A DNA stretch of 37,679 nucleotides from a virus (taxonomy: Duplodnaviria; Caudoviricetes), in the IMG/VR virus record IMGVR_UViG_3300012940_000054, positions 1 to 37,679 of that record. The stretch is one strand, 5' to 3'. Numbering within the stretch: the stretch's first letter is position 1; the number at the start of each line of letters is the position of its first letter. The notes under the pieces are model-generated. The model was not told where the DNA came from. It saw only the letters and a program-made list of their open reading frames with translations, and ran no database searches. A program made the translations under genes and the position numbers. This document shows positions 846 through 20,650 of this stretch, piece by piece.

Positions 846-1304
846 TCACTGGAGGAGGCCCCGCATCAGGCTGACCGCGTACTCGCGGCCGAGCAGCTGG
901 ATGCCTCGAAGGTGAACGAGGCCCTCGTAGTCGTCAGCGGCAGCAGCCTTCTCGAGCTGTTCAGTAAGGACATCATCGACGAAAGCGGCGGTCGTAAGCT
1001 TTGTCGCAAGATCCGCGACTGTATCCGGCGACGCAGCGACCTTCTCGCCGAGGGCGGTGTGCGTATTGCGGATGTCGAGGAGGAGACACGCGACCTTAGC
1101 CGCACTCGCTTCTTTACCGCGTAAACCACCGGGGAAACCCAGTGCCTCCGACGCCCGCTTCAGTCGACGGAAGAGGCCGTCACACATCTCGGAGTGACGC
1201 ACCTGTACAGCCGCGGATGTGGAAGCATCGATCTCGCCGGCAACCTTCTCGAGGTTGTCGGTGTGGCGAAGGGTCTTCCAAACGTGTGCGTAGAGCGGGT
1301 TCAC
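846..1304 (-). CDS. Hypothetical protein, probable head-associated (K-x-A motifs)
   Basis: GTG start overlaps the upstream stop (GTGA); contains EKVAG, EKVAA, EKAAA. Confidence 0.65.
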   Translation of the reverse strand: MNPLYAHVWKTLRHTDNLEKVAGEIDASTSAAVQVRHSEMCDGLFRRLKRASEALGFPGGLRGKEASAAKVACLLLDIRNTHTALGEKVAASPDTVADLATKLTTAAFVDDVLTEQLEKAAAADDYEGLVHLRGIQLLGREYAVSLMRGLLQ

Positions 1305-1519
1305 GCCTGACCCCCGAGATCCTTGAGTGCCTGGAGCCCCGCCTGGATGATACGACGCTCTGCGCGCTGCATGGCGATCTTCATCCCGAGGTGCATGAGC
1401 AGGGTTCTCTCGCTGTCGTCCTGGAGTCCGTACATCTGCGCCGCTAGCTTGGGGAAGCCGCCGGTGTTCACGATCTCCCGGAGCTGCGGGCTGACAAGCT
1501 TCTCGAAGTCAATCTGCAT
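1301..1519 (-). CDS. Small hypothetical protein
   Basis: Tightly packed in the operon with a GGAGG RBS; contains KLAA and KIAM. Confidence 0.6.
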   Translation of the reverse strand: MQIDFEKLVSPQLREIVNTGGFPKLAAQMYGLQDDSERTLLMHLGMKIAMQRAERRIIQAGLQALKDLGGQA

Positions 1520-1520
1520 T

Positions 1521-2408
1521 TCAGTGCCTCCGGCCCTTCGCGGCGTTTTCCGTCTCGACCAGATTCTTGATGGTAGCGTAGTTCGGACCTGTACCGCTCA
1601 GGACACACTCACGAAGAAAAGATCGAGCCGCGTTCGGGTCCAGAGAGATGGTCGGCGCGAACCGAACCATCGTGGCGTACGCCTCCAAGACCAACTCCTT
1701 GCCGTGCGGCTGCCGAGAAACGGCGTCACTGATGACGGGGTCGGTCCTGATGAGGCTCTCGACGAGCTGCTTCCGGCGAGGGTCTGTGACCAGCGTCTGC
1801 TTCAGCTTGTCGTACAGGCCCCCGATACCACCGAAGGCCGCGTCGAGCACGCCCTTTCCGATACCGGCGCCAATCCCAGACGCGAAGCTATCGATGCCCT
1901 TGTCCCGAATCGTGCTTCCGACGTCTGCCCAGCTGGCGGTGTTGACCAGCGTGGCCTTCTTCACGAGGAACTCGTCGAGGCTCGCCGTCACGTGGCGACC
2001 TGGGTCTCGGTAGGCGTTCATCAATTCTTCCTCGCGCTTCTGCTGTGTCGAGTAGTAGGCACCTGCAAGTATAGGCGTGGCGAGGGCGGCACCAACGCCA
2101 AACCGCATGAGCGCCGGATTCTTGTCCAGGTACTTCCCCACGTTCCTCGCGCCGCGCATCAGCGCGGGGCCTGCGGTGGAGGGCCGCACGGCCGCGCTTC
2201 CGACACGCTTTGCGGTATCCCACGCGGCACGGCCCATTTGCGCCGCATGCGGTAGTTCGTCCACAACGCCCATTCCACGACGTAGAGCTCTGGCGACGTC
2301 TTCCGATCCAGGAGACCGGTTGAGATCGCGAAGAACGTCCTGCGGGTCGAAGGGCCATGCAACCTTCTCCACCTCGGAGAGGTATGCCTTCACGATCTTG
2401 TTGCGCAT
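1521..2408 (-). CDS. Hypothetical protein with hydrophobic/Gly-rich segments, possible internal virion protein
   Basis: Operon packing; N-terminal EKVA; segments FGVGAALATPILAGAYY and FASGIGAGIGKGVLDAAFGGIGG. Confidence 0.65.
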   Translation of the reverse strand: MRNKIVKAYLSEVEKVAWPFDPQDVLRDLNRSPGSEDVARALRRGMGVVDELPHAAQMGRAAWDTAKRVGSAAVRPSTAGPALMRGARNVGKYLDKNPALMRFGVGAALATPILAGAYYSTQQKREEELMNAYRDPGRHVTASLDEFLVKKATLVNTASWADVGSTIRDKGIDSFASGIGAGIGKGVLDAAFGGIGGLYDKLKQTLVTDPRRKQLVESLIRTDPVISDAVSRQPHGKELVLEAYATMVRFAPTISLDPNAARSFLRECVLSGTGPNYATIKNLVETENAAKGRRH

Positions 2409-2412
2409 GCTT

Positions 2413-3225
2413 TCACCGCCCTAGTGCAGGCATGTTCTTGTCGATCCACTCGAGACCGCACCCGAAGCGAACGTAGTCCTCGCGCGCCTGCTTGGCCTGC
2501 TCGAGGACGGAGAGTTCCTTCGTGGCGTCGGCTACGTGGCGCTCACACAGCGACGCGACCTTCTCAGGGTCCGGGTTCGGCGCAGGCATCCGGAGGTTCT
2601 CGCGCAGGAGGGTAAGCTCCGGTACGATGTCCATCCCGTAGACGGCGTAGGCGTCCTTCTCGAAGTCGGTGTACACCGGGCCGTACCCAGCGGGACGCCG
2701 GAACACCTGCGTGAGCTCTGCGAGCTTTGTCTCCCACCGGTGCGCGGCACCGAGCTGCTCGATCTCGAACTCCGACGCGAGCTTGCGCAGAGCAAGCACG
2801 GTCATGTCCGGGCGGAGCGGCCGTTCGGGGACGTCATCGTACGCAGCAACTTTCTCCGCCGCATCGAATTCACGGCCGAGGCGCTTCGCGCGCATCATGT
2901 CAGGTACGGCGGTGTACGCCGCCAGCTTGTCGTTGTGAATATTCGCGCTCTGCGGGGGCTCCTCGTCGACGATGCGCCGAATCACGGCTTCCGGATCCCC
3001 CGTCTCGAATTCGACCATCTTGTCGCCGTCATCCTTCGCCTTGAAGAGCTCCTGGAACGCGGCCACGTTCGCAAGCCTCGTAAGTGTGCGGATCTCGTCC
3101 GGGTTGAGGCAGTTTTCGCGAGCCACCTTCTCGGCGAGGTCATTGATGCTGCGCTTCGAGGCAGCGTGGGCGACAGCGATCTCATTCGCGCGCCGAATAT
3201 ATTCGTTCTCGTTCCAGTTCGGCAT
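2413..3225 (-). CDS. Hypothetical protein, probable head-associated
   Basis: AAGGAG RBS; contains DKLAA, EKVAA, RKLAS, TKLAE, EKVAS. Confidence 0.7.
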   Translation of the reverse strand: MPNWNENEYIRRANEIAVAHAASKRSINDLAEKVARENCLNPDEIRTLTRLANVAAFQELFKAKDDGDKMVEFETGDPEAVIRRIVDEEPPQSANIHNDKLAAYTAVPDMMRAKRLGREFDAAEKVAAYDDVPERPLRPDMTVLALRKLASEFEIEQLGAAHRWETKLAELTQVFRRPAGYGPVYTDFEKDAYAVYGMDIVPELTLLRENLRMPAPNPDPEKVASLCERHVADATKELSVLEQAKQAREDYVRFGCGLEWIDKNMPALGR

Positions 3226-3235
3226 CGCCGTCTCC

Positions 3236-3919
3236 TTAGTGAAGGATCTCTTCGAGGGGTACCGGAGCCTGCTCAGGGGTCAGCGTTTCATCCCGCTGCT
3301 CAAGCGCGATCTCAAGCTCGTTTACCGCCGACTTAGTTGTCTGGGGGTCAATCTTCTCAAGCAACACCGCGTTGTTGATCGATACGCCCCACCACTTCAA
3401 CGCCTCCTTAGACATGCCGCTAGTCAAGGAGTTGCCCTTGTGGGCCATACCGCGGAAGAAAGCATCTTCCATGGTACGGCGTACGACGAGACGGTTGTCG
3501 ATCTGGTTCGTAGCGCCGTAAAGCCAGTGTAGGTAGGGCTGGCCCACCTGAACCGCGGTACGGACGATCTCTTTAGCGTAATCGCTTCCGTTGTAAGACG
3601 CGGCGTAACTCCAGACGTCAAGCTTGTTGCGGAACACCTGCATATCGAGAAACAGGTGACCGTAAGCAGCGAGCACATCCTGGGGGATCTCGAGAAGGGA
3701 CGACGTAGTCTGGACGTCTGTCCGCGCAAGGAAAAAGGCGTCAATGACGGCCCTGTGCTCGGGGTGCGTATACAGGTCGTGTGCGTACGCGACGTCCGAC
3801 CGAGAGCACGTACGCCCGCTAAAAATCTCGGCGAGGGCGGCCATCCGGGGGTCGCCAATCTCGACGCCCCCCGACAGCGCTTCCTTCACCGCCAGGTACC
3901 GGTGGTTAGGCGGCAGCAT
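3236..3919 (-). CDS. Hypothetical protein
   Basis: 227 aa ORF packed between its neighbours with an AGGAG RBS; no recognisable motif. Confidence 0.7.
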   Translation of the reverse strand: MLPPNHRYLAVKEALSGGVEIGDPRMAALAEIFSGRTCSRSDVAYAHDLYTHPEHRAVIDAFFLARTDVQTTSSLLEIPQDVLAAYGHLFLDMQVFRNKLDVWSYAASYNGSDYAKEIVRTAVQVGQPYLHWLYGATNQIDNRLVVRRTMEDAFFRGMAHKGNSLTSGMSKEALKWWGVSINNAVLLEKIDPQTTKSAVNELEIALEQRDETLTPEQAPVPLEEILH

Positions 3920-3921
3920 CG

Positions 3922-6534
3922 TTACTCCTGGTACGACGGATCGTTCTTTCCGGGCATCACGAGAGTGTTCTGGTTGATCTTCAAAATCAAGTCACCCAGA
4001 CCCTTGAACGTGGTGCGCAGGTTGTCTTCGATAGCGACGAAGGTCTCGTTGCCGATAGACCCCTTGATGTTCGTCTCATCCATCCAGAGGGTGAGAAGAA
4101 CCCGCCCGATGTTGTCGAGCGATTTCTCAAGGTTCGGCAGATACGCGCCGACCATATCCTTGAGCGCCGGGGACTGGGCCATAGACGCGAGGGCTGCGGC
4201 GTCAAAGGCCCCCGCGTCCTGGAGGGACCCTGCCTGCTCCATGAACTGCGGGTTCACCTGCTGCACGAGGCTCTCGACGGAGCCGTCGTCGGCGTTCATC
4301 ATCGCCTGCGGCATCTCGCCCTGCTGCGCCTGCGACGGGTCCATCGTCGGCTGACCCATGCCGGCAGCCTGGGCGCCACCCCCCTGTGCCATCGCCATCT
4401 GATTAGGGGCTCCGCCACCCATCGGTTGCTGGACCGGGGCGCCCGCCCCCATCATCGACGGGTCCATCGGACCACCCATGGCCGCCGCAGCCGCAGCGGG
4501 TGCCGCCGCCGCGCCGCCGCCACCTGCAATCATGTTGGCCCGCTGCTGGACCGTCATGAGCAGCTGCTGCATCTGTGTGAGCGCCTGCGCCTGCTGCTGG
4601 AGGTTCTGGATCTGCTCCGCGACAGCCATGTCTACGGGCGAGGGTCCCTGCGGCTGCGACATCTGCGCCGCCATAACCTGATCCATCGCCTGCTGTGCGG
4701 GATCAGCGGAACCGCCTTCACCCGAGCTAGCCTGCTCCTCACCCGCCGCTACCTTCAGGTACGCCGCCACCTTGGTGTACTTCTCAGGGGAGAGAACCCA
4801 GAACTCGGCGCGCCCGTCGTTTGTAGCCTGGTCGAGGAGGGTTTCCGCTTCGTCGACGGCGATCCCCTTCTCGCCTGCGATCTTACGAAGGGCGCCGACG
4901 TAGTCGTACTCCTGGCGGTCGATGACGTAGCCGCGGAAGGAGCCGGGCTGATGGACGATGACCTTCTCAGCGCCCTCCTTCACCAGACCCTCCAGCGTCC
5001 AGTGGAGGACATCCTTGGGCTCGGTCAGAAGATCGCCTGCAACGAGCTCGCCGCTAGTAGGCAGGAACACGTAGTCGGACGGAAGGTAGGCGATGTTGCT
5101 ACCCACCGGTACCATGAGCTTGCTGATCGGTGAGCCGGGGTCGGTGACGAGCGTGCGCTTGTCCCAGCCGGAGGACACCTCGATTCGCCGCACACCGCCG
5201 GCGTCCGTCGAGATGGACTCGATCTTCACAGGCGTGGTCGCCACGAAGCTCGCACCGCGCTTCTGAACGAAGATGCCCGTCTGGCCCTTCCGCGGGCCAG
5301 CAGCGGCGCCATCCCCGACGGTCTTCTTGTAGACTGCCGACCCCTCGAGATGGTCGATCGATACGGGCTGCCCCACCAGCTTTGTCGACTGGAGCAGTTT
5401 GCCGTCTTCGGTGACACCTACGTACCGATCGACGTGAACCTCGTCGCGGTAGCCGTCGAGACCGGGGACGCGATAATGCGCCCCGTGCCCGCGGTTCGGG
5501 TTCGCAGGTGCACTATCGACCTTGACGAACCGGATGTTTCGAGCGGGGGCCGGGTTGCCCGCGGTGTTCTTGAAGAGGTTTACCGGGTTACCGATGACGA
5601 GCGCGATCACGGGCTTGCCGTCGGACTTCCAGAGCTTGTACGCTCCCGCGTCCTTAGGCTCCTGGAGGTCACGGAAGGTCTGGACCTGCACCGCCCGGTT
5701 CCGTGTGGTGCGACTGTCTTCGGCGTAGTAGCCCTTGCGAGCGACGCCGCTGAACGCCACCGGCGCCTTTTCCCCGAAGAGACTCTTGAACTCACCGGGG
5801 CTTGTGTTCTTGTCTGCGATGTACAGCGCGCCGGTGGGCGAAAGCTTACCGCTGTAGTCCGCCAGCTTTTCTTCATGCCACGTCAGTGCGTCAACGAGAG
5901 GCTTTTCACCGTAGAAGAACACAGCCTGCTTGAGTAGGCGCGGGGTCGTCTCGAACAGGCGCGCGGTGGCCGACTTCACGCGGTTCGGCGCCTTGGAGAG
6001 GAAGTCGAGGAAGGCCAGCTTGGCCTCGGACGACTCACGGCGAGCTTCCTCAAAAACCTGCGCTACGCCTGCGCTATGGTCGGTCGCGTAGCTGTACCGC
6101 CCCGTCGTGGGGGGCACGACCGTGTTGCGGATGTCTACATCGGTCGACAGGGTTTCGGGTGCCTGAACACCGCGCCCGAGCTCACCGAGCGACATCTTGT
6201 CCAGCTCCTCGAGCCACTCCTTGCTGAGCGGGAGGAAGATGTTCAGGTCCTTGAAATACAAGACGTCGAGCGGCTTGATCTGGTTCTCCGCCATGATGAC
6301 GGGGATGTAGATCGTCTGGCCGCGGCGCAGCACGACGAACGCGCCAACGCCAGACCCCTCCTCGGGGTCGCTATCGAGAATCTTGAACGTGGCCACATCG
6401 CCACTGACGTTAGGGAGCTTGTTTACGAGGACGCTGTACGCCATCTGGGTAAGGCCCTGATCGAAAAGGGTCTTACCCTGGTCGCTCGGCACCCCGGGGG
6501 CCGCGAGAGCCTGCGTGCGAGGGGACAGGGACAT
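3922..6534 (-). CDS. Large hypothetical virion-associated protein (870 aa) with a Q/M/A/G-rich low-complexity segment
   Basis: Start reassigned to ATG 6534 (MSLSPRTQ) after GAGGAG. Contains EAKLA, EEKLA, RKIAG, TKVAA, LKVAA. Confidence 0.7.
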   Translation of the reverse strand: MSLSPRTQALAAPGVPSDQGKTLFDQGLTQMAYSVLVNKLPNVSGDVATFKILDSDPEEGSGVGAFVVLRRGQTIYIPVIMAENQIKPLDVLYFKDLNIFLPLSKEWLEELDKMSLGELGRGVQAPETLSTDVDIRNTVVPPTTGRYSYATDHSAGVAQVFEEARRESSEAKLAFLDFLSKAPNRVKSATARLFETTPRLLKQAVFFYGEKPLVDALTWHEEKLADYSGKLSPTGALYIADKNTSPGEFKSLFGEKAPVAFSGVARKGYYAEDSRTTRNRAVQVQTFRDLQEPKDAGAYKLWKSDGKPVIALVIGNPVNLFKNTAGNPAPARNIRFVKVDSAPANPNRGHGAHYRVPGLDGYRDEVHVDRYVGVTEDGKLLQSTKLVGQPVSIDHLEGSAVYKKTVGDGAAAGPRKGQTGIFVQKRGASFVATTPVKIESISTDAGGVRRIEVSSGWDKRTLVTDPGSPISKLMVPVGSNIAYLPSDYVFLPTSGELVAGDLLTEPKDVLHWTLEGLVKEGAEKVIVHQPGSFRGYVIDRQEYDYVGALRKIAGEKGIAVDEAETLLDQATNDGRAEFWVLSPEKYTKVAAYLKVAAGEEQASSGEGGSADPAQQAMDQVMAAQMSQPQGPSPVDMAVAEQIQNLQQQAQALTQMQQLLMTVQQRANMIAGGGGAAAAPAAAAAAMGGPMDPSMMGAGAPVQQPMGGGAPNQMAMAQGGGAQAAGMGQPTMDPSQAQQGEMPQAMMNADDGSVESLVQQVNPQFMEQAGSLQDAGAFDAAALASMAQSPALKDMVGAYLPNLEKSLDNIGRVLLTLWMDETNIKGSIGNETFVAIEDNLRTTFKGLGDLILKINQNTLVMPGKNDPSYQE

Positions 6535-6571
6535 GATCGAAACTCCTCGGAGTGTTTTTACGCCGTAAACC

Positions 6572-6606
6572 AAAAAGGCCGTCGGGCAGTTGAGCCCAAC
6601 GGCCTT
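6572..6606 (-). terminator. Rho-independent terminator
   Basis: Minus strand reads AAGGCCGTTGGGC-tcaact-GCCCGACGGCCTT-TTT (13 bp stem, one G-U), just downstream of gene 6641-7834. Confidence 0.75.
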
Positions 6607-6640
6607 GCTGGGCCAGCGGAGGTGGCCGGGCTTTGTTAGT

Positions 6641-7834
6641 TTAGCGCGCCGCGCTAGCGATGCGCTCCATCTCCGCGATGAGGCTCGAGGAGGTCTTCTC
6701 GCCCTTCTCCTTCGCCTCGTCACCCTTCATCGACTGCACCATCTCTGCGATGTCGCCCGCCTTCTTCTGGTCGACCGCAACCTTCGCATAGAGCGAATCG
6801 AGGATGGCCTGGCGGCCGTCGCGATCGTGACCCATCATCGAGCGGACCGCGGCAAGCTTCTCTTCACCAGTGAGCGTGGCCGGCAGGTAGGGGCCCACGT
6901 CCGCAGCGGTCTTGCGGAAGAGCTCCATGAAGAGCTCATCCTCCGATGCGGCCTTCGACGCCTGGATAACCGAGTTGGTGCCGCCGGGCGAGTTGGCCGG
7001 CGCCTCGGGGTGCTTCTTCTCGACGCCGACACGCGCGGCCTGCGGCTCCGAGAAATTGGCACCGCCGGGGCTCACCCGGTACGCGTTCTCCGGGCGCTGC
7101 TTGGCATCGAGCGCGCCAACCTCTGTGGTCTGAGCGGCCTGCGCAAAGGTGTTACCCTTGTCACCCCCCTGGATCAGAGCGCCTGCGATCTTACGAACGG
7201 CCTCACGCATAGCGGCTGCCTTCGTATTGGCGTCGGCACTCACCGAGTTGGAGCCCGACGGAGACTCCGCGGGCTTCTGGTCGTGCGTCTGGCTCGAGCC
7301 GTTCTGACCCTTGTTGGTGTCGAGCGCGGTGTTGCCCTGGCCGGTGAGGTAGGTGCCCTGGGGGCGCTGCTTCTCGTCGAGGGCGCCGACCTCGGTGGTC
7401 TTCGCAGCCTGGCCGGGGTCGTTGCCCTTGTCGCCACCCTGGATCAGGGCGCCGGCCTGCTTCTGAACCTCAGCAGCGGCCTTCTCCATGCAGGAGACGG
7501 CGACCGAGGAGGCGATGGCGTCGAGGTCCATCAGCGCCGCCGTCTTATTCAGGTCGGCCGCCGCAGCCTCCGCCTCGGGAGCAGGGGCGCCGCCACCGCC
7601 CGACTGCGCCATGAGGGCGTGAGCGATCTCGATCAGCTTGTTGGCGATCATCGCCACGTCCTCAGGGGCGTGACCTTCCGGGCCGGAGACTTCCGGCATC
7701 TCCTCGGGCATCTGCTCGGCGACCGCGTCAGCTGCCTCCTCGGCCGCCTCCTTCGACGGGAAGGAGACCACGCCGCGCCGCATGAGCTCGTGCGCCACGC
7801 CGTGAGCCGCCGCACGCTTGTACAGATTCGTCAT
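6641..7834 (-). CDS. Ala-rich hypothetical protein with an internal ~90 aa duplication; candidate scaffold or inner-head protein
   Basis: GAGGGAG RBS, apparent own promoter and terminator; many K-x-A motifs (KTAA, KAAA, KQAG, KIAG, KAAS, KLAA, KVAV). Confidence 0.7.
   Translation of the reverse strand: MTNLYKRAAAHGVAHELMRRGVVSFPSKEAAEEAADAVAEQMPEEMPEVSGPEGHAPEDVAMIANKLIEIAHALMAQSGGGGAPAPEAEAAAADLNKTAALMDLDAIASSVAVSCMEKAAAEVQKQAGALIQGGDKGNDPGQAAKTTEVGALDEKQRPQGTYLTGQGNTALDTNKGQNGSSQTHDQKPAESPSGSNSVSADANTKAAAMREAVRKIAGALIQGGDKGNTFAQAAQTTEVGALDAKQRPENAYRVSPGGANFSEPQAARVGVEKKHPEAPANSPGGTNSVIQASKAASEDELFMELFRKTAADVGPYLPATLTGEEKLAAVRSMMGHDRDGRQAILDSLYAKVAVDQKKAGDIAEMVQSMKGDEAKEKGEKTSSSLIAEMERIASAAR
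6965..7462 (-). repeat. Intragenic duplication with a 270 nt period
   Basis: KQAGALIQGGDKGN..QAAKTTEVGALDEKQRP..PAESPSGSNSV versus KIAGALIQGGDKGN..QAAQTTEVGALDAKQRP..PANSPGGTNSV. Confidence 0.85.
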
Positions 7835-8481: not shown

Positions 8482-10281
8482 TCAGTAACGACCATCGTTA
8501 CCCCCGCCGAACTCAGCTCCGTAGGCATACGCCGGGACAGGGTGCGTGCCGTGCAGGTTTGACTGATCGCCGAAATGCGCCCCTCGGACAAGGCTCTCCT
8601 TCAAGTAACGGTGCGCCATGCGCGCCATCCAGTCGGGGTGCAGGAGAGGGTTTCGCGTCATAGGCTTCATCAAGAACTCCACGCGCGGGGCTGTGTCCGA
8701 TACAGCTACGGTCTTTACCTGGTGGGCCTTGAGTGTTGCGACTATGGAGGGTGTGATCTGCGTACCTGCGGTAAAATGGAGCACCTCTTTACCGAGTAAA
8801 TGCCCCTCTGCCCGGTCTACGGGGATATCCCGGGTGCTCTCGCCTACCGCCTTCTTGTAGGTGTTGTAGTGGACGACGTCGCCCTTCAGGAGCTCAGGAT
8901 GCTTGTCGGAGTGCTCTGCGATCCTCACGTGGCTCAAGTCGACTCGCGCGAGGAGCTCGAGGTGCCGCTTGTCGACGTTCAGCCCCTGGCCTCCATACAG
9001 GTCATGGAGGGCATCCACCAGGTACTGCCGGCCTGCTCCGAAACCCTTGTGCCTTACGAGCTCGTCCGGCTTCGGGACCCCTTCCGAAAGCACGTCGCCG
9101 GCCTCTACAGTCTGGCCTACGTGAACTAGCACCTTCAGGTTCGGGCTTGCGTAGTGCTGAAGCCCGTCCACGTAGATGTAATTACCACCATGTGGTGCGG
9201 GCTCGATCTTAGTGATCTTTCCGTGCTTTTCAGCGAGAGCGGCCTTGTTGAAGAAGCTCTGCGGTACCTCGAGTAGCTGCCGCAGACCTGATAGACCTTC
9301 CAACTTCTGAGACGCGCCTTTCAGGACGCGCACGCCGTGCTTCGCGTTGAGGGCGAACTGGGTGAGAGGCTCCGAGAGCGCCTGTGCCGCGCGCACTCCG
9401 ACGTTCACCCCTAGGTCGTGCGGGCGGCCCTTCTCGTCCAGACCCTGGCACTTGCGACACACGCCCTCGTGCGCCTCGCAGGTGAGCGGGGAGCGGACGT
9501 AGATCGTCGCCACGCGTTCACGCAAGGACGAGGCGACCTGCGGCGTGACGAGGTCATTGTGCCTGAAACCACCTACGTCCTTTGCGAGATACCGACCGAG
9601 CGCGTGGGAGTCGCCGCTGGCCATGGCTATACCGTTCACGGTCCCGCAGTCGTCCTGCGTTACGACCATGGGGTACATGTTGTTCACCATGATCTTAGCC
9701 AGGTCGCCGGGCTCTGCGACGGACGTCGAACTCTTCACGGTGTTGATTCTGGCCTCGTTGCCTGCAACCCAATAATCAGCAGCGGTGAGGCCCTCAGAAT
9801 AAGATCGGCCGATGAGCCACGGGGCGATAGCTCCCTTCGCATCGACGGCCGCAACAGGTGACGCTACCGTCTTCATCAGCTGCGGGATGTTTCCGCGAGC
9901 ACCGGAAAGAGCCATCTGGGTCATCGAGCCCGGATGCTCTTTCGTGTGCGCCATGATCTTGTCCTGTACGTCTAGGATGATCTTCTCACGCTCTGCCTGA
10001 CTCTTGGCGCGCTTTGCCGCCTCGACCGCCGGCATGAGGAGTTTGTCCCGTGTTGCGTAGACAGGCGCGATGTCGTCCAGCCCAACGGAGACCCCGTCGA
10101 GCGTGGACAGTTCGTCGCCCACTCGCTTCAGCTTGCTGACGATGCCCACATACGCCTTGGGGTCTTCCTTTGCGATAGCGGTGAGCTTCTTTGTAAGCGC
10201 CGACTTGCCTAGACTATCGCTAGTACGGTGGTGCTCCGGGAGCACCTCATTGATCAGCAGCTGCCCGAGTGTGCTCGCCAT
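8482..10281 (-). CDS. RNA polymerase beta' subunit, C-terminal part (rpoC-like, split)
   Basis: SGARGN; bridge helix EGLTAADYW...ARINTVKSSTSVAEPGDLAK; DDCGT; Zn site RSPLTC..GVCRKC; trigger loop AAQALSEPLTQFALNAKH; KRHLELLAR. Confidence 0.9.
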   Translation of the reverse strand: MASTLGQLLINEVLPEHHRTSDSLGKSALTKKLTAIAKEDPKAYVGIVSKLKRVGDELSTLDGVSVGLDDIAPVYATRDKLLMPAVEAAKRAKSQAEREKIILDVQDKIMAHTKEHPGSMTQMALSGARGNIPQLMKTVASPVAAVDAKGAIAPWLIGRSYSEGLTAADYWVAGNEARINTVKSSTSVAEPGDLAKIMVNNMYPMVVTQDDCGTVNGIAMASGDSHALGRYLAKDVGGFRHNDLVTPQVASSLRERVATIYVRSPLTCEAHEGVCRKCQGLDEKGRPHDLGVNVGVRAAQALSEPLTQFALNAKHGVRVLKGASQKLEGLSGLRQLLEVPQSFFNKAALAEKHGKITKIEPAPHGGNYIYVDGLQHYASPNLKVLVHVGQTVEAGDVLSEGVPKPDELVRHKGFGAGRQYLVDALHDLYGGQGLNVDKRHLELLARVDLSHVRIAEHSDKHPELLKGDVVHYNTYKKAVGESTRDIPVDRAEGHLLGKEVLHFTAGTQITPSIVATLKAHQVKTVAVSDTAPRVEFLMKPMTRNPLLHPDWMARMAHRYLKESLVRGAHFGDQSNLHGTHPVPAYAYGAEFGGGNDGRY

Positions 10282-11097: not shown

Positions 11098-11699
11098 CCC
11101 TCGCAGAGAAGCATGCGGCGCATGTCATCCGCGTGATGGCTGTCGCTCAAGGCGAGCTGGTCCGCGAGCGCCTTGAGGGCGAGGTTTTCACCGGCGACAG
11201 CTGCGAGCTCCCGGGCGGCCTGTATAAGCGCCTGCTCCTGTCCCAGGATGACCATGTACATCCGGTGCAGGTCGCTCACGTCGGGTGGCGAGGAAACGGC
11301 CGGGGGCGGCTCACCGCCCAACGCCGTGATCTTCATGGCAAGCGCGTAAGCGTCCTTCTGCTCGTCACGCATGTGCTCCTGAAAGTGTTCGTAGATCACA
11401 TCACGGAAGTGGGCTCGCAGGCGGTCACCGTAATTCATGTAGGTGATGACCTGCGTGTACTTCAGCTTGAGCAGCTTCTGGAGCAGCTTCACGACACGGT
11501 CCTGCGGAACCGCGAAAGCGCCCTCCTGAGGCGACACCATGAGCGGGTGAACACCTTCGGAAGCGGTAGGAGGAGGCGGCTCCACCTGTTCCGGCTGCGC
11601 CACGGGCGCTACGTCCCTGCCGGTCACGGACTCCGCGAGCTGCTCGAGCGCCGTCTTCTGCTTCGTGTCCGTCGTCGGTGCGGGTACGTTGTAGCTCAT
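11094..11699 (-). CDS. Ferritin/bacterioferritin-like four-helix-bundle protein with an N-terminal extension
   Basis: LQKLLKLKYTQVITY...EHFQEHMRDEQKDAYALAMKITALGGEP...QEQALI...DSHHADDM; ATGA coupling to the RNAP gene. Confidence 0.65.
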   Translation of the reverse strand: MSYNVPAPTTDTKQKTALEQLAESVTGRDVAPVAQPEQVEPPPPTASEGVHPLMVSPQEGAFAVPQDRVVKLLQKLLKLKYTQVITYMNYGDRLRAHFRDVIYEHFQEHMRDEQKDAYALAMKITALGGEPPPAVSSPPDVSDLHRMYMVILGQEQALIQAARELAAVAGENLALKALADQLALSDSHHADDMRRMLLCEG

Positions 11700-14600
11700 A
11701 TGATCTCCACCTTATCCTGGAGGCTGATCTCTCCACGCTTGTAGGCCGCTACCGCGTCGGCCTTCGTCTTGAACTTATGGACCTTGCCGTCCGCCGCCTT
11801 GGCAGTTGCCAGGTGCACGCCGATGAGCGCCTCGTGACCAGGGGCGACCATGAGCTCGTTGTGCTGCTTGTCGCCGAAGATCAGGTTGGAGAGTGTCATC
11901 TGACGCACCTCGGAGACCGCTTGCGGCATCACCGGGACATGCACCTGGAAGGTGTCACCGTCGTAGTCGGCGTTCATGCCCTTCTCGATGAAGGGGTTCA
12001 CGCGGATGGTCTTGCCCTGCACCGGGACTGCGTACGCACCGACCACGTTGTAGCGGTGGAGTGTGGGAGCGCGGTTCACCATGACCGGCCGCTCCGCACA
12101 CTCGGCCATCAGAGCGTCACGGGCGGCAGGGTGCCGTTTCTCGAGCATCTCCTTCGCCTGTACAGCGCCGAAGCCTCTGGAGATCAGACGCTTGATGACG
12201 AACTTGCCGAACATACCCCAGAGCATGTCTTCCGGCAGCCCCACCTGATCCATGTCCAGAGAGCCATCAGGCGCAATCGTGCCGCGTCCCGACGCGTCCT
12301 GCTGCTTCTTCATCAGCTTCTTCTGGAAGAAGGAGCTCTTCGGAGTCGTCTTGCCAGTCAGGTGCTCGAGGAAGCCCTTCACGTTGCGCTTCTCGAGCTT
12401 CGGGTTATCTGTCGTGTGCGTCCCGATCACGGCGCCGACAGCCTGGTGCAGGTTGCGACGCAGCCCGGCGTGCTCATCCGGCGGGAGGATGGGTGAGTCG
12501 TTCTGAGCCTTCAGAACCTTGTTGTGCAGCATCGCGTTCTGGTAGAGGTAGTTCGAGTCGCCTACGACCATCTCCTGGCCGCCGTTGCCGGGGAGGATGG
12601 GGCGCATGACAGGCGGGAGCACCGGGAGCTTGGTGAGCACGTAGGCATCGCCGGGTCGCAATCCGGCGCGCTTCAGCGCCTCGAGATACTTGATCTGCTT
12701 CACCGCATCATCGAGCTTGGCGCCGGACAGTCCCTTGATCGTGTTCCTGAGTTCGGTAAGACGAGACTCGACATCGATCTGGTTGAGGCGTGACTTGATA
12801 GCGGCGCCGCCCTCGCGGTAGTGCAGCTCGTCGAGCGCCTTGTTGGTCAGGCCGAGGAGGCGCCTCGTAGGGTCTGTGAATACCGGATTGACGATGGGTT
12901 CGGCCAGGTCGATATGGGACCAGCGCGTACCGGCCGTACCCCCGGTAAGCGAGGGGTCGAAGAGGCCGCCGCGCTCAGGAGCGAGGTCCTTGGCGCGGAC
13001 AAGCTTCTCGTTCTGCACCGCACCAGACGACATCTTGAGTACGTCGTTGTCTGTAAGCGGTTTCAGCGTAAGCGCGCTTCCCTGCTGATCGACTTTGATA
13101 CCCGCGCCATGGAGCATTCCGATGAATTTATCGTACGCGAAAGAAGAGCGCATCGGAGGCAGAGGGAGACCCAGCTGGACGGCCCGCCAGAACTCGTCAT
13201 TCTTCTGACTCTTGATCGACGATGCTTCCTTGAGGACGTTGCGTGCGTTGTGCGCGATGAGCGCATTGAACTCCATTGCACCGATCGCCTTGGCACCCGC
13301 GTCACCACCCTTCGTCGGCTGCATGTTTACGTCGTAACCGCCGGTGCCGCGCGCCGAGAAGTTCGAGTCGGTCGTCTTGAAGAGGCGCAACGTGTACTGC
13401 GGCCCGACGAGGACGCCGTCGATGTGCTTCCCGGAGATCGGGTCGAAAACACGTTCCTTGTCCTTCACGCCATGCTGGGCGAGGAGGTCCTTCGCCCAAC
13501 GCACGTTGTCGCGTCCCGAGAAGTTCTCAACGACAATCGGCTGCCCGGTCTTCTGCGCAACTTTGGCCACAGCCGTCTCGATGATCTGCGCGGGGTTGAT
13601 TCGTGAGATGACGCCGGCCGACGTGTACAGGATGTCTACCGGCTTACCGCCTTCATCCTGGACCATCTTGTGGTCGGGCACGATGTGCGACACGACGCCC
13701 TTGTTGCCGTAGCGCCCGGCGAGCTTGTCGCCGATGCGCATCGGCTCCCGAGTACGGACGGTGACGACGATGCGTCGATCCGACTGGAAGACGTCGACGA
13801 CTTCACCCTCGAAATCGTGGTCCCATGTGCGGATGACTTCACGGTACGGGTTGGCGAGGCTCTTCTTGAAGTTCCCGAGCAGAGCGTCCGTAGAGGAGAG
13901 CTTACCCTTCTGCACACCAACAACGATCGGATCGTGTGGTAGCAGCTTGGCTCCCTTCTTTACGACACCCTTATCGTCGAGCTTGCGGTACTGCGCGGCC
14001 TGGTACTTGCTGCCGTAGTACTGCCGATGAATTTCACGCCCGATCGTCGTGTCGCGATCGACGTCGAGAACTTCCTTGTACATGTGCTCCGAGGTGAGCT
14101 TGGTTGCAGCACCCTCAGAGATGACGACAGCGTCGTTCGAGTTCAGCCCGTAGTAAGGCATATACGCGATCGTCATGTTCCGACCGAGCGCGAGTGTGCC
14201 CCCTCGGGTAAAGTTAGACTCGCCCAGCGGCTGGTCCGCGTGAACGGTGTCGCCAGGCTTTACGTGAAGATCATGGTTGAGGTACGTCTTCGACGCGAAG
14301 GGGAAGAACGTCTCGTACGGAACCTTGACGAGATTATTCTCTTCCGCGACTTTGACACCACCCTCGTCCTCGATCACGCGCTTGAATGCGTCAAGCGTTA
14401 CTGTATGGATGGTGCTCCGCATGCGTGGGAGGATGTGGTGGTCGAAGCACCGCACCGCCGCATCCTTAGTAGGGAAGCCGAGGAAGACCTTGTGCTCATC
14501 GAGTGTCTTCCCGTCGTCTTTGAGCTTCTCGATGATGAAAACGTCCTTCGCGTCCTGGTCCTCGCCGAGATACACGTCGAGCTCTTCCCCGTCGTTGTCG

Positions 14601-17533
14601 AAGAGACCGGGGACGAAGCCGTAATCGTACTGGTAGATGACCTTGGCGCCGTTTCGGAACGTGTGCTCGAAGCCCTTGGGTCGATCTACGTGGACGGGGA
14701 CGCCCTGGAAGAAGACCTTCTTCATCACCTCGTCTGCACGCTTCTGACGCGTAGCGTCCGCCGCCTGCTTCGTGTGCGTAGGGTCTATGTACACGTACTG
14801 GGAGTCGACCTTCACCACCTTGCCTGACACGGGCGCTGTGGGGAGTATCAGCTTGGCGAACTCCTTCTCCCAGCTTGAGATCTCAGACCCGTGCTGTGTG
14901 AGCCTCTTGGCCCCCACCTGGACGAGAGGGGCTTCACGCTCCACGAGCGGCAACGCCTGGGTCTGCATCTTCGAGCCCATGGTAGCGCGGTTGCCCTGGA
15001 TGCTCTCCATCATGGGGATGAGATTGGAGCTCGGCGAGTACAGCTGTGCGGAGTGGTACAGCTCGTACTGGACCTCCGCCGCAGGGACGTGTTGCACCTG
15101 TCCCCGCTTCATCACCGCTACCAGGCCAGACAAACGCTGGCCGGGGAACGCTACGACCTTCTGCTCGATGTCCTTGGCGGAGAGCTGCTCGAACTTGCCC
15201 GTCTTCACGTTGCGGACGGGTGTGTAGAGGTTCCCGCGCGCATCGCGATGGGCGAGCATGGACGCGCGGATGTCGACGCCGGCCTTGAAGGAGTTGCCCG
15301 TCCAGATGGGCATAGCCCCGTTCCTACGGATGTAGAGCATGTTGCCAGGAACCTGCGCACAGTACACCATGCCGTCGTACGGAACGGTGTAGTAGTGTCC
15401 CTTGCTCTTGCGCGCCTGTTTCTCCATCGCCTGGATCACGCGCACCTCATACACCGGGAGATACCGGTCATCGCGCTTGTCGACGTAGACGGCGGTGCGC
15501 GTAGGCGTGCCGAGGCTGATCGAGAGGCGCTCGAAGTCGCGTGCAAGGCGTTCGCTAGTTGTACAGAGGACTTCCTGGTACTGCTCCTTGCCGGTAGCGC
15601 GAACCTGTACGCCGTACCGCCCGTCGCCCCTGAGCAGTGCGCGCCAGAGTGCACGCCGAGCAGCCACGGGGGCCTCGAAGAGGTACTCCGGGATGTACTT
15701 CTGCGCGCAATGGCCGAACTGTGCCACGTATTCGGTGAGCTGGCGGCTATTGATGATGTACGTACGCTGATCTGCACTGCGCGTATACGCGAGCTGCATG
15801 CGCGCGAGGAGTGCCTCGATCTCGCGACAGCAGTCAGGGTTCGCGCCCTCAAACTGGCTGAGCTGTACCTGAAACTGCGGCAGATCCGTCAGCGTGAAGC
15901 TGCCCTCGCTCAAGTACCAGCCCACGAACTCCGCCCAATCCCGTATATCGAACACCTTGGCGGGTTCGTGCTTACCGCTACGCCGTGCCGCACCGGGCAA
16001 ACGGAACGTGGTGAGCCGCGCGTCACCTGCGTACGGATCGTGCCGGCCGGTGAACCACCGAATCCTGCCGTGCATCGTTTCAGCGAGGTCCATGCGGTAG
16101 GCGGCCCCGGGGTATTCAGGACGCGACCAGACCCGGTGGTTGGGTGTGACCAGATACTCGATCGGAGCCTTAGTGCCCGTCTTGACACCGTACATCTCAC
16201 CAACGTAACGGCGCGCAAAGAGGTGTTCCGGGTGGTGAAACTCGAGCTGCCCGCGGATGTTACAGGCGAGCTTGTCCGCCTGAGTCACGTCTCGGAACAG
16301 CTTCCACCCCGTGGAGGTGAGCACTTCCGTGTCGGCCGACACGCATTCGGGCGTGCGTACCGGGTCGAGGATGCCGAAGTGCGTCGGATGGAGCTGCCGT
16401 GCCTCCATGGGGATGGCGCGCTCAGACGAGATGCCGCCTTCGCCCAGGCTGGTGACCTTTACCGCGTTGTCGATCATCTCCATCGGGTTGATCTGAGTGG
16501 GAATCGCGCTGAGCTGCGATCCCGTCAGGAACGAGCGGACGCCACTGCTGAAGGGTGCCGAAGGGACGAGCTCTCGGAGGGTGGTCTTCGTCGTAGCCCG
16601 CCCCTTCACCTTGGCGGCGATTGCGCGGGCGTCGAGCTGGATGCGCTCCTTGATGAAGTCGTCGACTGAGTGGAACGTCTTGAACGCGAGAGAGTCTCGA
16701 TCATCGACGTCAGCGCCCGACCGATAGACCTCGAGGAGCTTGCGGGAGGCGTCCAGCAGCGCGCGGGGGGTGACCTTCTCGTGCGCGGCGCCGAGGGTGA
16801 CGTAGTTCACCTCGCCGTCCATAGCCGTAGTCTCAAACGCGCGATGGATCGCCTCGATCTTAGCGGCAGGCGTGGTTGCCGTCTGCTTAGACGGGTGCAC
16901 GAGCTTCCCGTAGAGCTTGTCGACCGCCTGGTCTGCCTTAGCCTCGAACGCGCGCGCGTTAGCCTCGGCCACCTGCCGCCCCCACGCCTGCGCGATCTCG
17001 TTCGGCTGCGTACCGAGCCGGCGAAGAATCGGGTAAAGCGGGATGGTGGTGGTCCCGTACTCGATGTACGGGTGACCCTTCTGCGGATCGAGCGACAGGC
17101 GGAAGTTCGACCCCTTTGAGAGGTTGAAGGCCGCCTCGAGTTCATCGTTTGCACGCCGACGCGTGTACACGCCGGGCTTCATTCGAAGCTGGTTAGAGAC
17201 CTGGTACTCGTTTCCGTCCACGACGAAGGTATGCCGCTCGGTGAAGTAGGGGAGGTGCAGCAGGGTGAAGTTCTTGGCCGTCTCGAGCACTTTGCCGTCG
17301 GGCCCTTTGAGAACGAGGGTGCCCTTGATCGGCTCGTGAAGCGAGTTACCCTGAAGCAGTGCGGCCTTCTGGTCGTCGGGGCCGTAGTTGCGTTCGTGGA
17401 TACGCGGGTCGTGCAGTTCGATGGTCAAATCGCGGACCTTGAGCGGAAACGCCTGCTGCAAGCCGTCGAGGGCTCGAGCGCGAATCTGGTCACGGCGCGT
17501 CTTAGGGTCGACGAGAACGGGCGTCAGTTCCAT
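11696..17533 (-). CDS. RNA polymerase beta + beta' N-terminal fusion (about 1945 aa, including intein and PPase-like insert)
   Basis: Start reassigned to ATG 17533. Beta motifs: TFVVDGNE, HPTHFG..PVRTPE, NRATMGSKMQTQA, GDKLAGRYGNKG, SRIN, GAME. Beta' motifs: PERGGLFD, HIDL, VLPPVMRP, NRAPTLHR and catalytic NADYDGD (about 11954-11974). Confidence 0.92.
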   Translation of the reverse strand: MELTPVLVDPKTRRDQIRARALDGLQQAFPLKVRDLTIELHDPRIHERNYGPDDQKAALLQGNSLHEPIKGTLVLKGPDGKVLETAKNFTLLHLPYFTERHTFVVDGNEYQVSNQLRMKPGVYTRRRANDELEAAFNLSKGSNFRLSLDPQKGHPYIEYGTTTIPLYPILRRLGTQPNEIAQAWGRQVAEANARAFEAKADQAVDKLYGKLVHPSKQTATTPAAKIEAIHRAFETTAMDGEVNYVTLGAAHEKVTPRALLDASRKLLEVYRSGADVDDRDSLAFKTFHSVDDFIKERIQLDARAIAAKVKGRATTKTTLRELVPSAPFSSGVRSFLTGSQLSAIPTQINPMEMIDNAVKVTSLGEGGISSERAIPMEARQLHPTHFGILDPVRTPECVSADTEVLTSTGWKLFRDVTQADKLACNIRGQLEFHHPEHLFARRYVGEMYGVKTGTKAPIEYLVTPNHRVWSRPEYPGAAYRMDLAETMHGRIRWFTGRHDPYAGDARLTTFRLPGAARRSGKHEPAKVFDIRDWAEFVGWYLSEGSFTLTDLPQFQVQLSQFEGANPDCCREIEALLARMQLAYTRSADQRTYIINSRQLTEYVAQFGHCAQKYIPEYLFEAPVAARRALWRALLRGDGRYGVQVRATGKEQYQEVLCTTSERLARDFERLSISLGTPTRTAVYVDKRDDRYLPVYEVRVIQAMEKQARKSKGHYYTVPYDGMVYCAQVPGNMLYIRRNGAMPIWTGNSFKAGVDIRASMLAHRDARGNLYTPVRNVKTGKFEQLSAKDIEQKVVAFPGQRLSGLVAVMKRGQVQHVPAAEVQYELYHSAQLYSPSSNLIPMMESIQGNRATMGSKMQTQALPLVEREAPLVQVGAKRLTQHGSEISSWEKEFAKLILPTAPVSGKVVKVDSQYVYIDPTHTKQAADATRQKRADEVMKKVFFQGVPVHVDRPKGFEHTFRNGAKVIYQYDYGFVPGLFDNDGEELDVYLGEDQDAKDVFIIEKLKDDGKTLDEHKVFLGFPTKDAAVRCFDHHILPRMRSTIHTVTLDAFKRVIEDEGGVKVAEENNLVKVPYETFFPFASKTYLNHDLHVKPGDTVHADQPLGESNFTRGGTLALGRNMTIAYMPYYGLNSNDAVVISEGAATKLTSEHMYKEVLDVDRDTTIGREIHRQYYGSKYQAAQYRKLDDKGVVKKGAKLLPHDPIVVGVQKGKLSSTDALLGNFKKSLANPYREVIRTWDHDFEGEVVDVFQSDRRIVVTVRTREPMRIGDKLAGRYGNKGVVSHIVPDHKMVQDEGGKPVDILYTSAGVISRINPAQIIETAVAKVAQKTGQPIVVENFSGRDNVRWAKDLLAQHGVKDKERVFDPISGKHIDGVLVGPQYTLRLFKTTDSNFSARGTGGYDVNMQPTKGGDAGAKAIGAMEFNALIAHNARNVLKEASSIKSQKNDEFWRAVQLGLPLPPMRSSFAYDKFIGMLHGAGIKVDQQGSALTLKPLTDNDVLKMSSGAVQNEKLVRAKDLAPERGGLFDPSLTGGTAGTRWSHIDLAEPIVNPVFTDPTRRLLGLTNKALDELHYREGGAAIKSRLNQIDVESRLTELRNTIKGLSGAKLDDAVKQIKYLEALKRAGLRPGDAYVLTKLPVLPPVMRPILPGNGGQEMVVGDSNYLYQNAMLHNKVLKAQNDSPILPPDEHAGLRRNLHQAVGAVIGTHTTDNPKLEKRNVKGFLEHLTGKTTPKSSFFQKKLMKKQQDASGRGTIAPDGSLDMDQVGLPEDMLWGMFGKFVIKRLISRGFGAVQAKEMLEKRHPAARDALMAECAERPVMVNRAPTLHRYNVVGAYAVPVQGKTIRVNPFIEKGMNADYDGDTFQVHVPVMPQAVSEVRQMTLSNLIFGDKQHNELMVAPGHEALIGVHLATAKAADGKVHKFKTKADAVAAYKRGEISLQDKVEII
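14345..14770 (-). other. Inorganic pyrophosphatase-like domain inserted in RNAP beta
   Basis: VHVDRPKG...YDYGFVPG..DNDGEELDVYLG...DEHKVFLGF matches the PKG / YGxxP / DGDxxD / DxK pattern of family-I-like PPase domains. Confidence 0.7.
15293..16345 (-). mobile_element. Intein (351 aa) with LAGLIDADG-type homing endonuclease
   Basis: TPE|CVSADTEVLT...VTPNH...FVGWYLSEGS...ALLRGDG...VYCAQVP..IWTGN|SFK; removing it restores the beta TPE motif. Confidence 0.9.
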
Positions 17534-18913: not shown

Positions 18914-20650
18914 TTACTGGACTCCACCTGCGGCGACCTGCTGCTTCGCCTGCATCGTCTGTGCGTTCTGTGCGTCCTCGAGCCGCTGAATTACGACTGC
19001 GTGCATGACCGCGTCTTCTGCCTGAAGACTGTGAAGCTGGGAGCGGCGCGTGGCGGGGTCGAGCTGGATGAGCTCGGCCACGAGCTGGTCGGCCGAAGCG
19101 ATAACCGCCTGCTGATCGTAATTCAGCCCGGCGTTGCCCTGCATCTGCGCCTGCACCTGCTGCGCCAGAGTGTTCTGGAGCTTCTGAAGCTCCTGCTGCA
19201 CCTTCATATTGAGTCTCGCCTCATCGAGGATCTCCTGTAGACGCTTGTCGCGCTCCTCTTCAGGATCAATGCCTACACGCTCCGCCACAGTTGTTCTCGA
19301 TACGACAGGCGCTTCTCCGTTCGGGCCGGGGCTAGCGAGACCGATAATGACCTGCTTGGTCTCCGTATCCTCCACCATCTTCAGCGGCGTGAGCTTGGTA
19401 TCGATACGCTCCCAGCCGAGGAACTTGGCGAGCTTATCGGTGTACCACTGAAGGAGGCCGTTCATATCGTCAGCGTGACCTTGCAGCTGGTTTTCGATCA
19501 GCCTGAGCGTACCCTCCATGCCGGCCTTCGTGAGCCCTCCATAGAGGAACTCGGAGGGGATACCGAGGGCTGCCATGATCGCCTTCTCAGCCTCCTGGAG
19601 CTCACCGAGCGTAAGCATAGCGCGACCATCACCGCCGATGTTCGTAACCCCGATGGCTGTCGGTGAGAACATGGCGTGAAGCTGGTCGCGCCGGAACTGC
19701 CGCATGTTCTTCTTCAGTTCATCCTGCCAGCGCCCCATGGAGAGCATCTGCGCAATGTCCTGTGCGTTCGACTGCGCAGGATGGATGACGCGGAATGGGA
19801 CAATGTGCTCGAGCGCGATGGCCTCGTTCGCCTTGCGGAGTACCATCGTGTACAGGAAGAGCTTGATAGTGGAGGCGAGAGGCGGGAAGCCCCACTGCTG
19901 TTCGATGCCGGAGGGGGACGCTACCTTGATGTGGTAGATCGCGTCCTTCTCGAATCTGAACGTCTTGTTGTCGCGAATGTTCTCGAGGAACTCCATCGGC
20001 ATGGAGTTGATCAAATGCTTGGAGCCGAGCTTGACCTTGTCACGAACGGTCTGCGGGACGTTGTAGTAGTATATCGACTGGCCGGTGATCGGGTTGTAGT
20101 CGATGTCCATGAGCTTAGGGTCCCATCGAATGATGTGGACCTTGTTTACTGCGAGGACCTTTCGATCGACGACTTTACCGTTGACGCTCCGGTGGCACTT
20201 CTTGCACCTGTAATTGAACTGGAGCTTCTTCAGGTCGAACTTGTAGTCGACCATCTGGATGTTGATGATGTGATCACACTGAGGACACTTCAGGTGTCGG
20301 ATGAACGGCTGGTAGAACGACGTGAAGTGGTTGCCGTAGATGTGCTTGTCCAGTGACGCCATCAGCAGCGCACTCTTCACCTTCAGCGTCTTCTCGAAAA
20401 GACGACGATAGTTGCGCCGGAGAGACTCATTGGAGGTTCCGTACTCGATGTCGGTGACTACGAGTGATCCGTACTTCTGTAGTGTCGCGTAGATGTGTGC
20501 GCTGTTGTACGCGAGGTACTCGCACCACTTGAATAGGTCTTTCATCTTCCTCGGGACAAATCCCGTCAGGAAGTCGTACGCAGGGTTAGGGTGCGCAGAG
20601 GCACGATCAAACGCCAAGAACGCGTCATTCAGCGAAAGGTCAGAGGACAT
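18914..20650 (-). CDS. Putative portal protein with a Zn-ribbon insertion
   Basis: 578 aa; IYGN...RWDP...YHIK...WGFPPL...IMAALGIPSEFL matches portal-type motifs; CPQC/CKKC insert; heads the morphogenesis arm. Confidence 0.65.
   Translation of the reverse strand: MSSDLSLNDAFLAFDRASAHPNPAYDFLTGFVPRKMKDLFKWCEYLAYNSAHIYATLQKYGSLVVTDIEYGTSNESLRRNYRRLFEKTLKVKSALLMASLDKHIYGNHFTSFYQPFIRHLKCPQCDHIINIQMVDYKFDLKKLQFNYRCKKCHRSVNGKVVDRKVLAVNKVHIIRWDPKLMDIDYNPITGQSIYYYNVPQTVRDKVKLGSKHLINSMPMEFLENIRDNKTFRFEKDAIYHIKVASPSGIEQQWGFPPLASTIKLFLYTMVLRKANEAIALEHIVPFRVIHPAQSNAQDIAQMLSMGRWQDELKKNMRQFRRDQLHAMFSPTAIGVTNIGGDGRAMLTLGELQEAEKAIMAALGIPSEFLYGGLTKAGMEGTLRLIENQLQGHADDMNGLLQWYTDKLAKFLGWERIDTKLTPLKMVEDTETKQVIIGLASPGPNGEAPVVSRTTVAERVGIDPEEERDKRLQEILDEARLNMKVQQELQKLQNTLAQQVQAQMQGNAGLNYDQQAVIASADQLVAELIQLDPATRRSQLHSLQAEDAVMHAVVIQRLEDAQNAQTMQAKQQVAAGGVQ

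Follow-up and report, generated by a model that had tools for sequence, protein, structure and literature searches.

Prohead proteases process packaged proteins in phages such as T4 (gp21, with the Alt and IP proteins) and phiKZ (gp175). The prohead protease of SPN3US, gp245, is described as cutting after A-x-E and mostly removing N-terminal propeptides, and this phage also packages a multi-subunit RNA polymerase (RNAP) (PMC10052503). In a cultured relative, Salmonella phage Arash, the RNAP homologue gp206 was the top-detected protein of purified particles, with 3516 spectra and 128 peptides, and gp216 gave 1210 spectra; the authors point out that abundant enzymes may co-purify, and the particle list includes a primase and a ligase (PMC10585845).

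A second relevant system is InPase (Pfam PF18823), a domain related to inorganic pyrophosphatases (PPases), which the accessible part of Iyer et al. (2017, PMC5512222) reports as virion-associated in phage polyvalent proteins and portal fusions, and where processing of polyvalent proteins is proposed for the MPTase metallopeptidase. We found no structure of an InPase, the InPase-holding residues 529-765 of the Pa193 portal being without density in the available text (PMC11456595), and no report of enzymatic activity for the family in the literature. Outside subscription papers, we likewise found no description of an InPase inside a multi-subunit RNAP, and the portions available of PMC12619734, PMC11437467, PMC7824862 and PMC11766831 hold nothing on such an insert.

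Here, we describe the RNAP of an uncultured phage that carries an InPase within its beta region, and compare the site with its counterparts in related viruses. The comparison suggests that the RNAP probably has a second role, bringing a helper enzyme into the virion, and that the Lys-x-Ala motifs of the loop are likely cutting sites of the head protease.

Results

A split RNA polymerase with a long insert in beta

The window is the whole stretch of viral DNA analysed, 37,679 nucleotides long. It encodes a re-partitioned RNAP, with beta and the N-terminal half of beta' in one gene and the C-terminal half of beta' apart, the same arrangement as in Arash gp206/gp216. The features concerned are:

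11696..17533, minus strand: RNAP chain, all of beta and the N-terminal half of beta', 1945 aa from the ATG at 17533 (record P0005)
8482..10281, minus strand: C-terminal half of beta', a separate gene, homologue of Arash gp216
14780..14827, minus strand: N-terminal flank strands of the beta motif, SGKVVKVDSQYVYIDP
14330..14779, minus strand: variable loop (the cargo slot), 150 aa, in the beta sandwich-barrel-hybrid hairpin
14243..14332, minus strand: C-terminal flank of the beta motif, LVKVPY...VKPGDTV
15293..16345, minus strand: probable intein in the RNAP beta gene, with C...GN/S ends and weak NCBIfam matches, absent from most homologues

The reading frame is open upstream to a GTG at 18193 (ORF 18193/17533-11696), and the fusion chain retains GDKLAGR-x-GNKG and NADYDGD, both intact. 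The beta segment holding the loop is what we take to be the 'sandwich-barrel-hybrid'; an N-terminal SBHM is described as common to phage and bacterial beta (PMC7824862). Both loop flanks can be aligned to bacterial beta, and in a cargo-free homologue the loop is a turn near D617-G618 of Thermus thermophilus beta (positions counted by hand from the alignment).

The initial annotation reported an insert here, and it is real: positions 14345-14770 (minus strand) are stop-free and encode 142 aa, KQAAD...VKVA, in frame between SGKVVKVDSQYVYIDP and LVKVPY...VKPGDTV. The loop has 150 aa in the window, whereas most relatives without cargo have 10-20 aa there, which puts the net insert at about 135-140 aa. 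An assembly artefact was ruled out: one contig of run X1 spans 13000-17600 with zero mismatches, gaps or joints, possibly being the source of the DNA and thus not independent support, and homologues share the layout.

Several other features of the window were recorded. The probable intein has a homing-endonuclease-like core, and a related element occurs further downstream, at a different site, in L012, L014 and L021; in Vibrio phage D181 (L037:3285-8799) the annotated RNAP gene is broken up around a homing endonuclease that lies immediately 5' of the loop region, which may point to an intron. Between the two RNAP genes lie a ferritin-like gene (11094-11699, minus strand) and an LLH holin (10541-10900, minus strand). 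Elsewhere are genes for a phage sigma-70-like factor with an inserted Cys-pair segment (26458-27303, minus strand), a ParB-like protein (25380-26375, plus strand) and a family A DNA polymerase (32890-35889, plus strand) bearing an N-terminal extension that may be uracil-DNA-glycosylase-like. A scan of genome contigs gave four loci in MAGs, from which no host is identifiable, and no RNA datasets holding the sequence were listed.

The insert is a member of the InPase family

The domain and its motifs are placed as follows (residues in P0005 numbering):

14372..14740, minus strand: InPase domain, 'DRPKG' subtype, family I PPase-like (Pfam PF18823)
14576..14623, minus strand: Y-G-x-x-P...D-G-E-E-L-D motif, putative metal-binding loop (Y971, D981, E983, D986)
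14489..14500, minus strand: D-E-H-K motif (D1012, E1013, K1015)

PF18823 matches residues 1152-1274 of P0001 (nucleotides 14740-14372) at E 5.6e-19, with 68.8 bits against a cut-off of 26.8; membership scores run from 68.8 to 74.9 bits against the same cut-off, covering model positions 4/5-134 of 135. The cut-off of PF00719, the family I soluble PPases, was missed (14.7 bits against 23.5), and we therefore file the insert under InPase. The annotation had suggested a PPase-like domain akin to those of phage polyvalent proteins, and the assignment to InPase, the family treated in the accessible part of PMC5512222, upholds that link; RPKG, YDYGFVPG, DNDGEELDV and DEHK are all present in the translation.

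An AlphaFold2 model of the domain (54-row alignment) reached pLDDT 92 and pTM 0.86. Foldseek returned only type I pyrophosphatases among the matches listed (n=34; E 4e-4 to 1e-2, TM 0.36-0.50), four of them with E up to 0.001, and the top eight rows of VIA-align were also type I PPases (Z 5.2-6.7, rmsd 3.3-4.4, 103-122 residues aligned), the next, unrelated row having Z 3.5. The predicted fold thus appears closest to the beta-barrel of the family I pyrophosphatases; the fold scores are moderate (Z under 7), yet the matches all belong to one family.

Across 202 domains compared, the near-invariant residues Y971, G972, D981, D986, D1012, E1013, K1015 and G1019 are kept in the window and E983 is also present, with the YG / DExK and acidic putative metal-binding positions of InPase all in place; the core Y, G, D, D, E, K, G is likewise kept in 97-100% of non-RNAP domains. 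The window differs from the family majority at Q-to-K1003 and Y-to-F1030, and because P0006, P0007 and P0013 have both deviations too, they mark an InPase subtype and not private decay. A profile alignment with the Mycobacterium tuberculosis PPase needed nine inserted residues at the strand 1-2 beta-hairpin region, and only the Y55, D65/D67/D70 and D102/K104-like positions of the Escherichia coli PPase align confidently; the substrate-binding set of the latter we take to be K29, E31, R43, D97, Y141 and K142. On these residues the insert is an InPase that probably works in a family I PPase-like manner.

The insert also matches the Pbunavirus portal gp19 (sequence of PDB 9b41; E 7.8e-11), and in cultured phages InPase matches fall on portal, minor head, tail and virion structural proteins (among the matches listed, 25 of 431). 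The top 150 representative matches of the insert include no RNAPs, a count that is biased, RNAPs clustering with insert-free representatives, and that has no value as a frequency. A two-domain model (pTM 0.56) predicts no fixed packing of InPase on beta, and its linkers are of low confidence (pLDDT 54-79 and 67).

Unrelated domains alternate in the loop

Homologous loops were collected in two ways. The first sample took 22 and then 79 IMG/VR loci (the second set being the best 80 of 130), which together with Arash, Vibrio D181 and the window gave 73 distinct loops, two loci without a same-frame C-flank having been dropped. The second, insert-blind sample was queried with the region after the loop only; after one locus had been dropped, it comprised 106 distinct loops from the best 80 of 185 and the best 80 of 188. 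Pooled (best 80 of 130, of 185 and of 188), there are 127 distinct homologous loops, 89 short and 38 long.

Among the 30 long loops of the insert-blind sample (best 80 of 185 and of 188), InPase fills 20, including the window's own contig L221 (19 of 29 without it), a GNAT domain fills five (three by Pfam, two near-identical to one of these), and the remaining five have no Pfam family above cut-off. Two loops, L054 and L078, hold an additional P-loop domain with motifs between the modules, and in multi-domain cargo generally (L004, L054, L078 and P0007) a K-x-A-type motif stands between domains. InPase, GNAT, P-loop and unknown domains thus alternate in one slot among relatives, as is characteristic of polyvalent proteins. 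No Pfam match to the self-processing MPTase domain was found in P0001 at E up to 0.01; some polyvalent proteins are also without one.

Cargo without a Pfam family above cut-off was seen at L237:3489-3938, L203:3545-4000, L130, L252:3197-4000, L265:3371-4000, L134:3752-4000 and L272; it includes an HSRG-motif domain, Cys-pair domains and others, that of L130 being seemingly frame-broken. By their motifs, the extra domain of L004 may be ParB-like and the cargo of L237 and L203 hydrolase-like, neither having a Pfam match. In ten medium loops of 34-43 aa (L113, L119, L124, L125, L145, L166, L167, L174, L215 and L229), two K-x-A-type motifs enclose a common 'AP(V/I)EHV'-like core, which may be a conserved peptide that is released.

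The InPase cassette has been exchanged

In a tree of RNAPs without their loops, cargo-bearing and empty loops alternate. The clade of the window (FastTree support 1.0) has InPase in 13 of 13 members, the position of the window within it having FastTree support of only 0.19-0.26. The InPases themselves fall into different lineages: those of the window, P0006 and P0007 (first copy) group with non-RNAP proteins (99/98), and the window type stands apart from that of L001-L005 and L045-L051. Forcing ten type A and B RNAP InPases together was rejected by an AU test (p 0.00027) on 40 author-chosen rows, with types D and A2 left out. A single ancient insertion was ruled out by this test and by the 202-row tree, which requires five changes, four of them forced by starred branches. 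At least four InPase lineages have entered the slot.

The loop of P0007 holds both InPase types in tandem, with K-I-A-G between them. This tandem and the distinct InPase lineages imply that members of the clade swapped or gained the cassette, a pyrophosphatase being kept each time. What the window newly adds is an InPase lineage unlike that of most close relatives, a cassette swapped with the pyrophosphatase retained. Two subtypes in tandem also occur in the non-RNAP protein P0081, and in P0051, P0091, P0097 and P0109; such pairs possibly hint at substrate specialisation. A mobile element acting at the DNA level was considered and rejected: the insert ends have no informative direct or inverted repeats, and GC3 of the insert (0.80) is like that of the carrying RNAP gene (0.80-0.87).

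K-x-A motifs at the loop

The insert is bracketed by three K-x-A motifs:

14759..14770, minus strand: K-Q-A-A, outer 5' motif, in a low-pLDDT linker, at a position apparently common with the motif of empty slots
14732..14743, minus strand: K-R-A-D, inner 5' motif, which goes with this InPase subtype in non-RNAP proteins
14342..14353, minus strand: K-V-A-E, 3' motif

The bracketing motifs had been pointed out in the initial annotation as TKQAA, QKRAD and VKVAE; all three are present, and the motif is kept in homologous loops. In the first sample (best 80 of 130; Arash and D181, both without the motif, excluded), 37 of 48 short loops contain strict K-x-A; windows of equal length from other parts of the RNAPs predict 3.5, and shuffling gives a mean of 18.3 (maximum 28 in 2000 shuffles). 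With the pattern K-x-A or K-x-[SG]-A, which was chosen after seeing the loops, that sample gave 48 of 48 short loops, and 23 of 23 long loops had a match at each end. The insert-blind sample (best 80 of 185 and of 188) gave 71 of 76 short loops, including 34 of the 39 new to it, and the pooled set (best 80 of 130, of 185 and of 188) 82 of 89 short loops, with a match at each end in 36 of 38 long loops. The exceptions include Arash gp206 and Vibrio D181, with loops of 5-7 aa, and the short loops of L187, L268 and L274.

No other K-x-A site of the RNAP chain is as well conserved as that of the loop (70 of 73 homologues; best 80 of 130). Three structured RNAP sites, including the catalytic GDKLAGR, nevertheless have K-x-A in 60, 49 and 47 of about 70 homologues, and the motif also begins a helix inside InPase; K-x-A alone is therefore not diagnostic, and the scores of the structured sites mean that exposure must matter. 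Among non-RNAP InPase proteins, the motif stands on both sides of the domain in 13 of the top 25 (shuffle mean 2.4, maximum 7) and in 44 of 152 overall (shuffle mean 9.5). K-x-A lies just ahead of InPase in 12 of 15 non-RNAP relatives (counted by eye, among the matches listed), so the inner K-R-A-D belongs to the cassette.

K-x-A motifs in the head module

The head genes relevant to the motif are:

846..7834, minus strand: head-module ORFs, K-x-A being significantly rich in 846-1304, 2413-3225 and 6641-7834
1..776, minus strand: head maturation protease gene, cut by the window edge (PHROG 18299, E 5e-12; 41% identity to Arash gp222)
18914..20650, minus strand: portal protein, 30% identity to Arash gp204

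The head-module ORFs starting at 2413, 3236 and 3922 match Arash gp220, gp219 and gp218. We divided the ORFs into head-module and replication-side sets by position and by Arash matches. Nine head-module ORFs contain 46 K-x-A motifs against a shuffle mean of 22.4, with none of 1000 shuffles as high, in agreement with the likeness to head proteins noted in the initial annotation; 11 replication-side ORFs contain 31 against 30.6. The narrower K-x-A[ASG] is slightly raised on the replication side (12 against 6.4, p 0.027). On sequence grounds, the motif has the traits of a prohead-protease substrate, being enriched in head proteins and conserved at a linker predicted to be exposed.

The head protease of the window has K-T-A before and K-V-A after its matched domain, at positions matching those of Arash gp222 and P0009. 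The latter is a head-protease homologue fused to an InPase, which is held between K-x-A motifs in its C-terminal part.

Discussion

In the window, a single reading frame encodes the N-terminal part of beta, an InPase, and the remainder of beta with the N-terminal half of beta', and the loops of homologues either have no cargo or carry different domains. The proteomics of Arash, together with the order of the genes, suggests that the RNAP would be built into the prohead. The proteomic evidence for packaging comes solely from a member without the slot, and by analogy the RNAP of the window, known from its genes beside portal and head genes, may be packaged as well. Because the Arash loop is without the motif, Arash supports packaging and not cleavage; for the same reason packaging in Arash does not depend on a cut at the loop, even though K-x-A is found in Arash head proteins.

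From the motif statistics, the head protease would then cut the exposed K-x-A linkers, nicking beta in every motif-bearing member and freeing any cargo held between two motifs. Its fold and residues suggest that the freed InPase would be a metal-dependent phosphoanhydrolase, delivered with the DNA as a helper enzyme. Its substrate would most likely be pyrophosphate (PPi) from early transcription or replication, and a nucleotide may serve instead.

The initial annotation had left two choices, a polymerase with a tethered PPi sink or a passenger released by the prohead protease, and the comparative evidence favours the passenger and weighs against the tether. Release is preferred because the motif persists in empty loops, because non-PPase cargo shares the slot, and because the closest InPases lie between the same motifs in non-RNAP proteins; on balance, we lean towards the InPase being protease-released virion cargo that acts on PPi. 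Were it to stay covalent in the beta loop and hydrolyse the PPi of its own RNAP, with the K-x-A linkers as flexible spacers or left uncut in the folded enzyme, the link to a PPi-producing enzyme would fit the prevalence of InPase as the commonest cargo (20 of 30 long loops, or 19 of 29 without the window's contig; best 80 of 185 and of 188), its presence in all 13 members of the window's clade and the entry of at least four InPase lineages into the slot. We nonetheless think this unlikely. The motif is retained in loops that are empty or that hold GNAT, P-loop or unknown cargo, the same InPase subtype occurs between the same motifs in non-RNAP proteins, and the two-domain model (pTM 0.56) predicts no fixed packing of the InPase on beta. 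The host cytoplasm, moreover, already contains a PPase. PPi clearance as such has been proposed for InPases by Iyer et al. (accessible part of PMC5512222).

We give somewhat less credence still to a released cargo that in fact acts on a host nucleotide (a defence signal, alarmone or polyphosphate) and for which the RNAP is a mere vehicle. InPases are without the classic family I beta hairpin and, in the accessible part of PMC5512222, are suggested to act on nucleotide-like substrates; the tandem subtypes in P0007 and in non-RNAP P0081 hint at differing substrates, and the window subtype deviates, as do its close relatives, at Q-to-K1003 and Y-to-F1030. The repeated choice of an RNAP slot, however, better suits PPi. 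A neutral or decayed hitch-hiker, tolerated only as the protease trims it out, seems improbable: cargo is patchy beside empty sister lineages and some slot InPase subtypes are highly diverged, but in the window the core Y, G, D, D, E, K, G is kept, the deviations are common to its subtype, and InPase is retained in 13 of 13 clade members. An ordinary lineage-specific beta insertion, the outcome that the initial annotation had set against its own proposal, is contradicted and can be given hardly any weight. Bacterial beta and beta' do carry large variable inserts between conserved regions, but those in the accessible part of PMC2939025 are SBHM or BBM2 repeats or other non-enzyme domains, whereas here an enzyme family is exchanged among close relatives.

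If the InPase is indeed released cargo, a multi-subunit RNAP would act as a polyprotein carrier with a conserved internal cut site in beta, and the prohead protease would have K-x-A specificity, unlike the cut-after-Glu rule of the studied giant phages. A bolder version, which we regard as doubtful, is that these phages eject a protease-split RNAP together with one pyrophosphatase per polymerase, their first transcription taking place beyond the reach of host pyrophosphatase, under selection strong enough for unrelated cassettes to replace one another. The beta loop is in any case marked as a site tolerating inserts of 130-550 aa, and the effect of a natural RNAP-PPase fusion on transcription yield bears on in vitro RNA synthesis.

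Comparison with known systems

The InPases of Iyer et al. are of the same family and have virion-associated carriers, with PPi clearance or nucleotide processing proposed; the domain here is inserted inside a conserved domain of a multi-subunit RNAP beta, whereas the accessible part of PMC5512222 mentions only N4-like single-subunit RNAPs for polyvalent proteins. Family I PPases (E. coli Ppa, M. tuberculosis Rv3628, PF00719) are the best fold matches, and their YG-x-x-P...D-G-D/E-x-x-D aligns with the insert; judged by sequence, the insert differs in its length (about 125 aa against about 170), its 10-18% identity, its apparently absent N-terminal hairpin and its PF00719 score below cut-off.

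The mReC phages (Weinheimer and Aylward 2020, PMC7481178) are described as tailed phages that likewise encode recognisable beta and beta'; the words 'pyrophosphatase', 'insertion', 'intein' and 'virion' are absent from the portion of that text available. Arash (OQ632216; PMC10585845) has in gp206 and gp216 the same split into beta with beta'N and beta'C, beside the portal gene, with 39% identity and K-x-A-rich head proteins. Arash and the Vibrio phages D69/D148/D181 differ in their loop, which has 5 aa in Arash and 7 aa in D181, no motif and no cargo. With SPN3US gp245 the common element would be a head protease that cleaves packaged proteins at a short motif; the motif proposed for the present phage is K-x-A, and it is an internal domain that would be excised.
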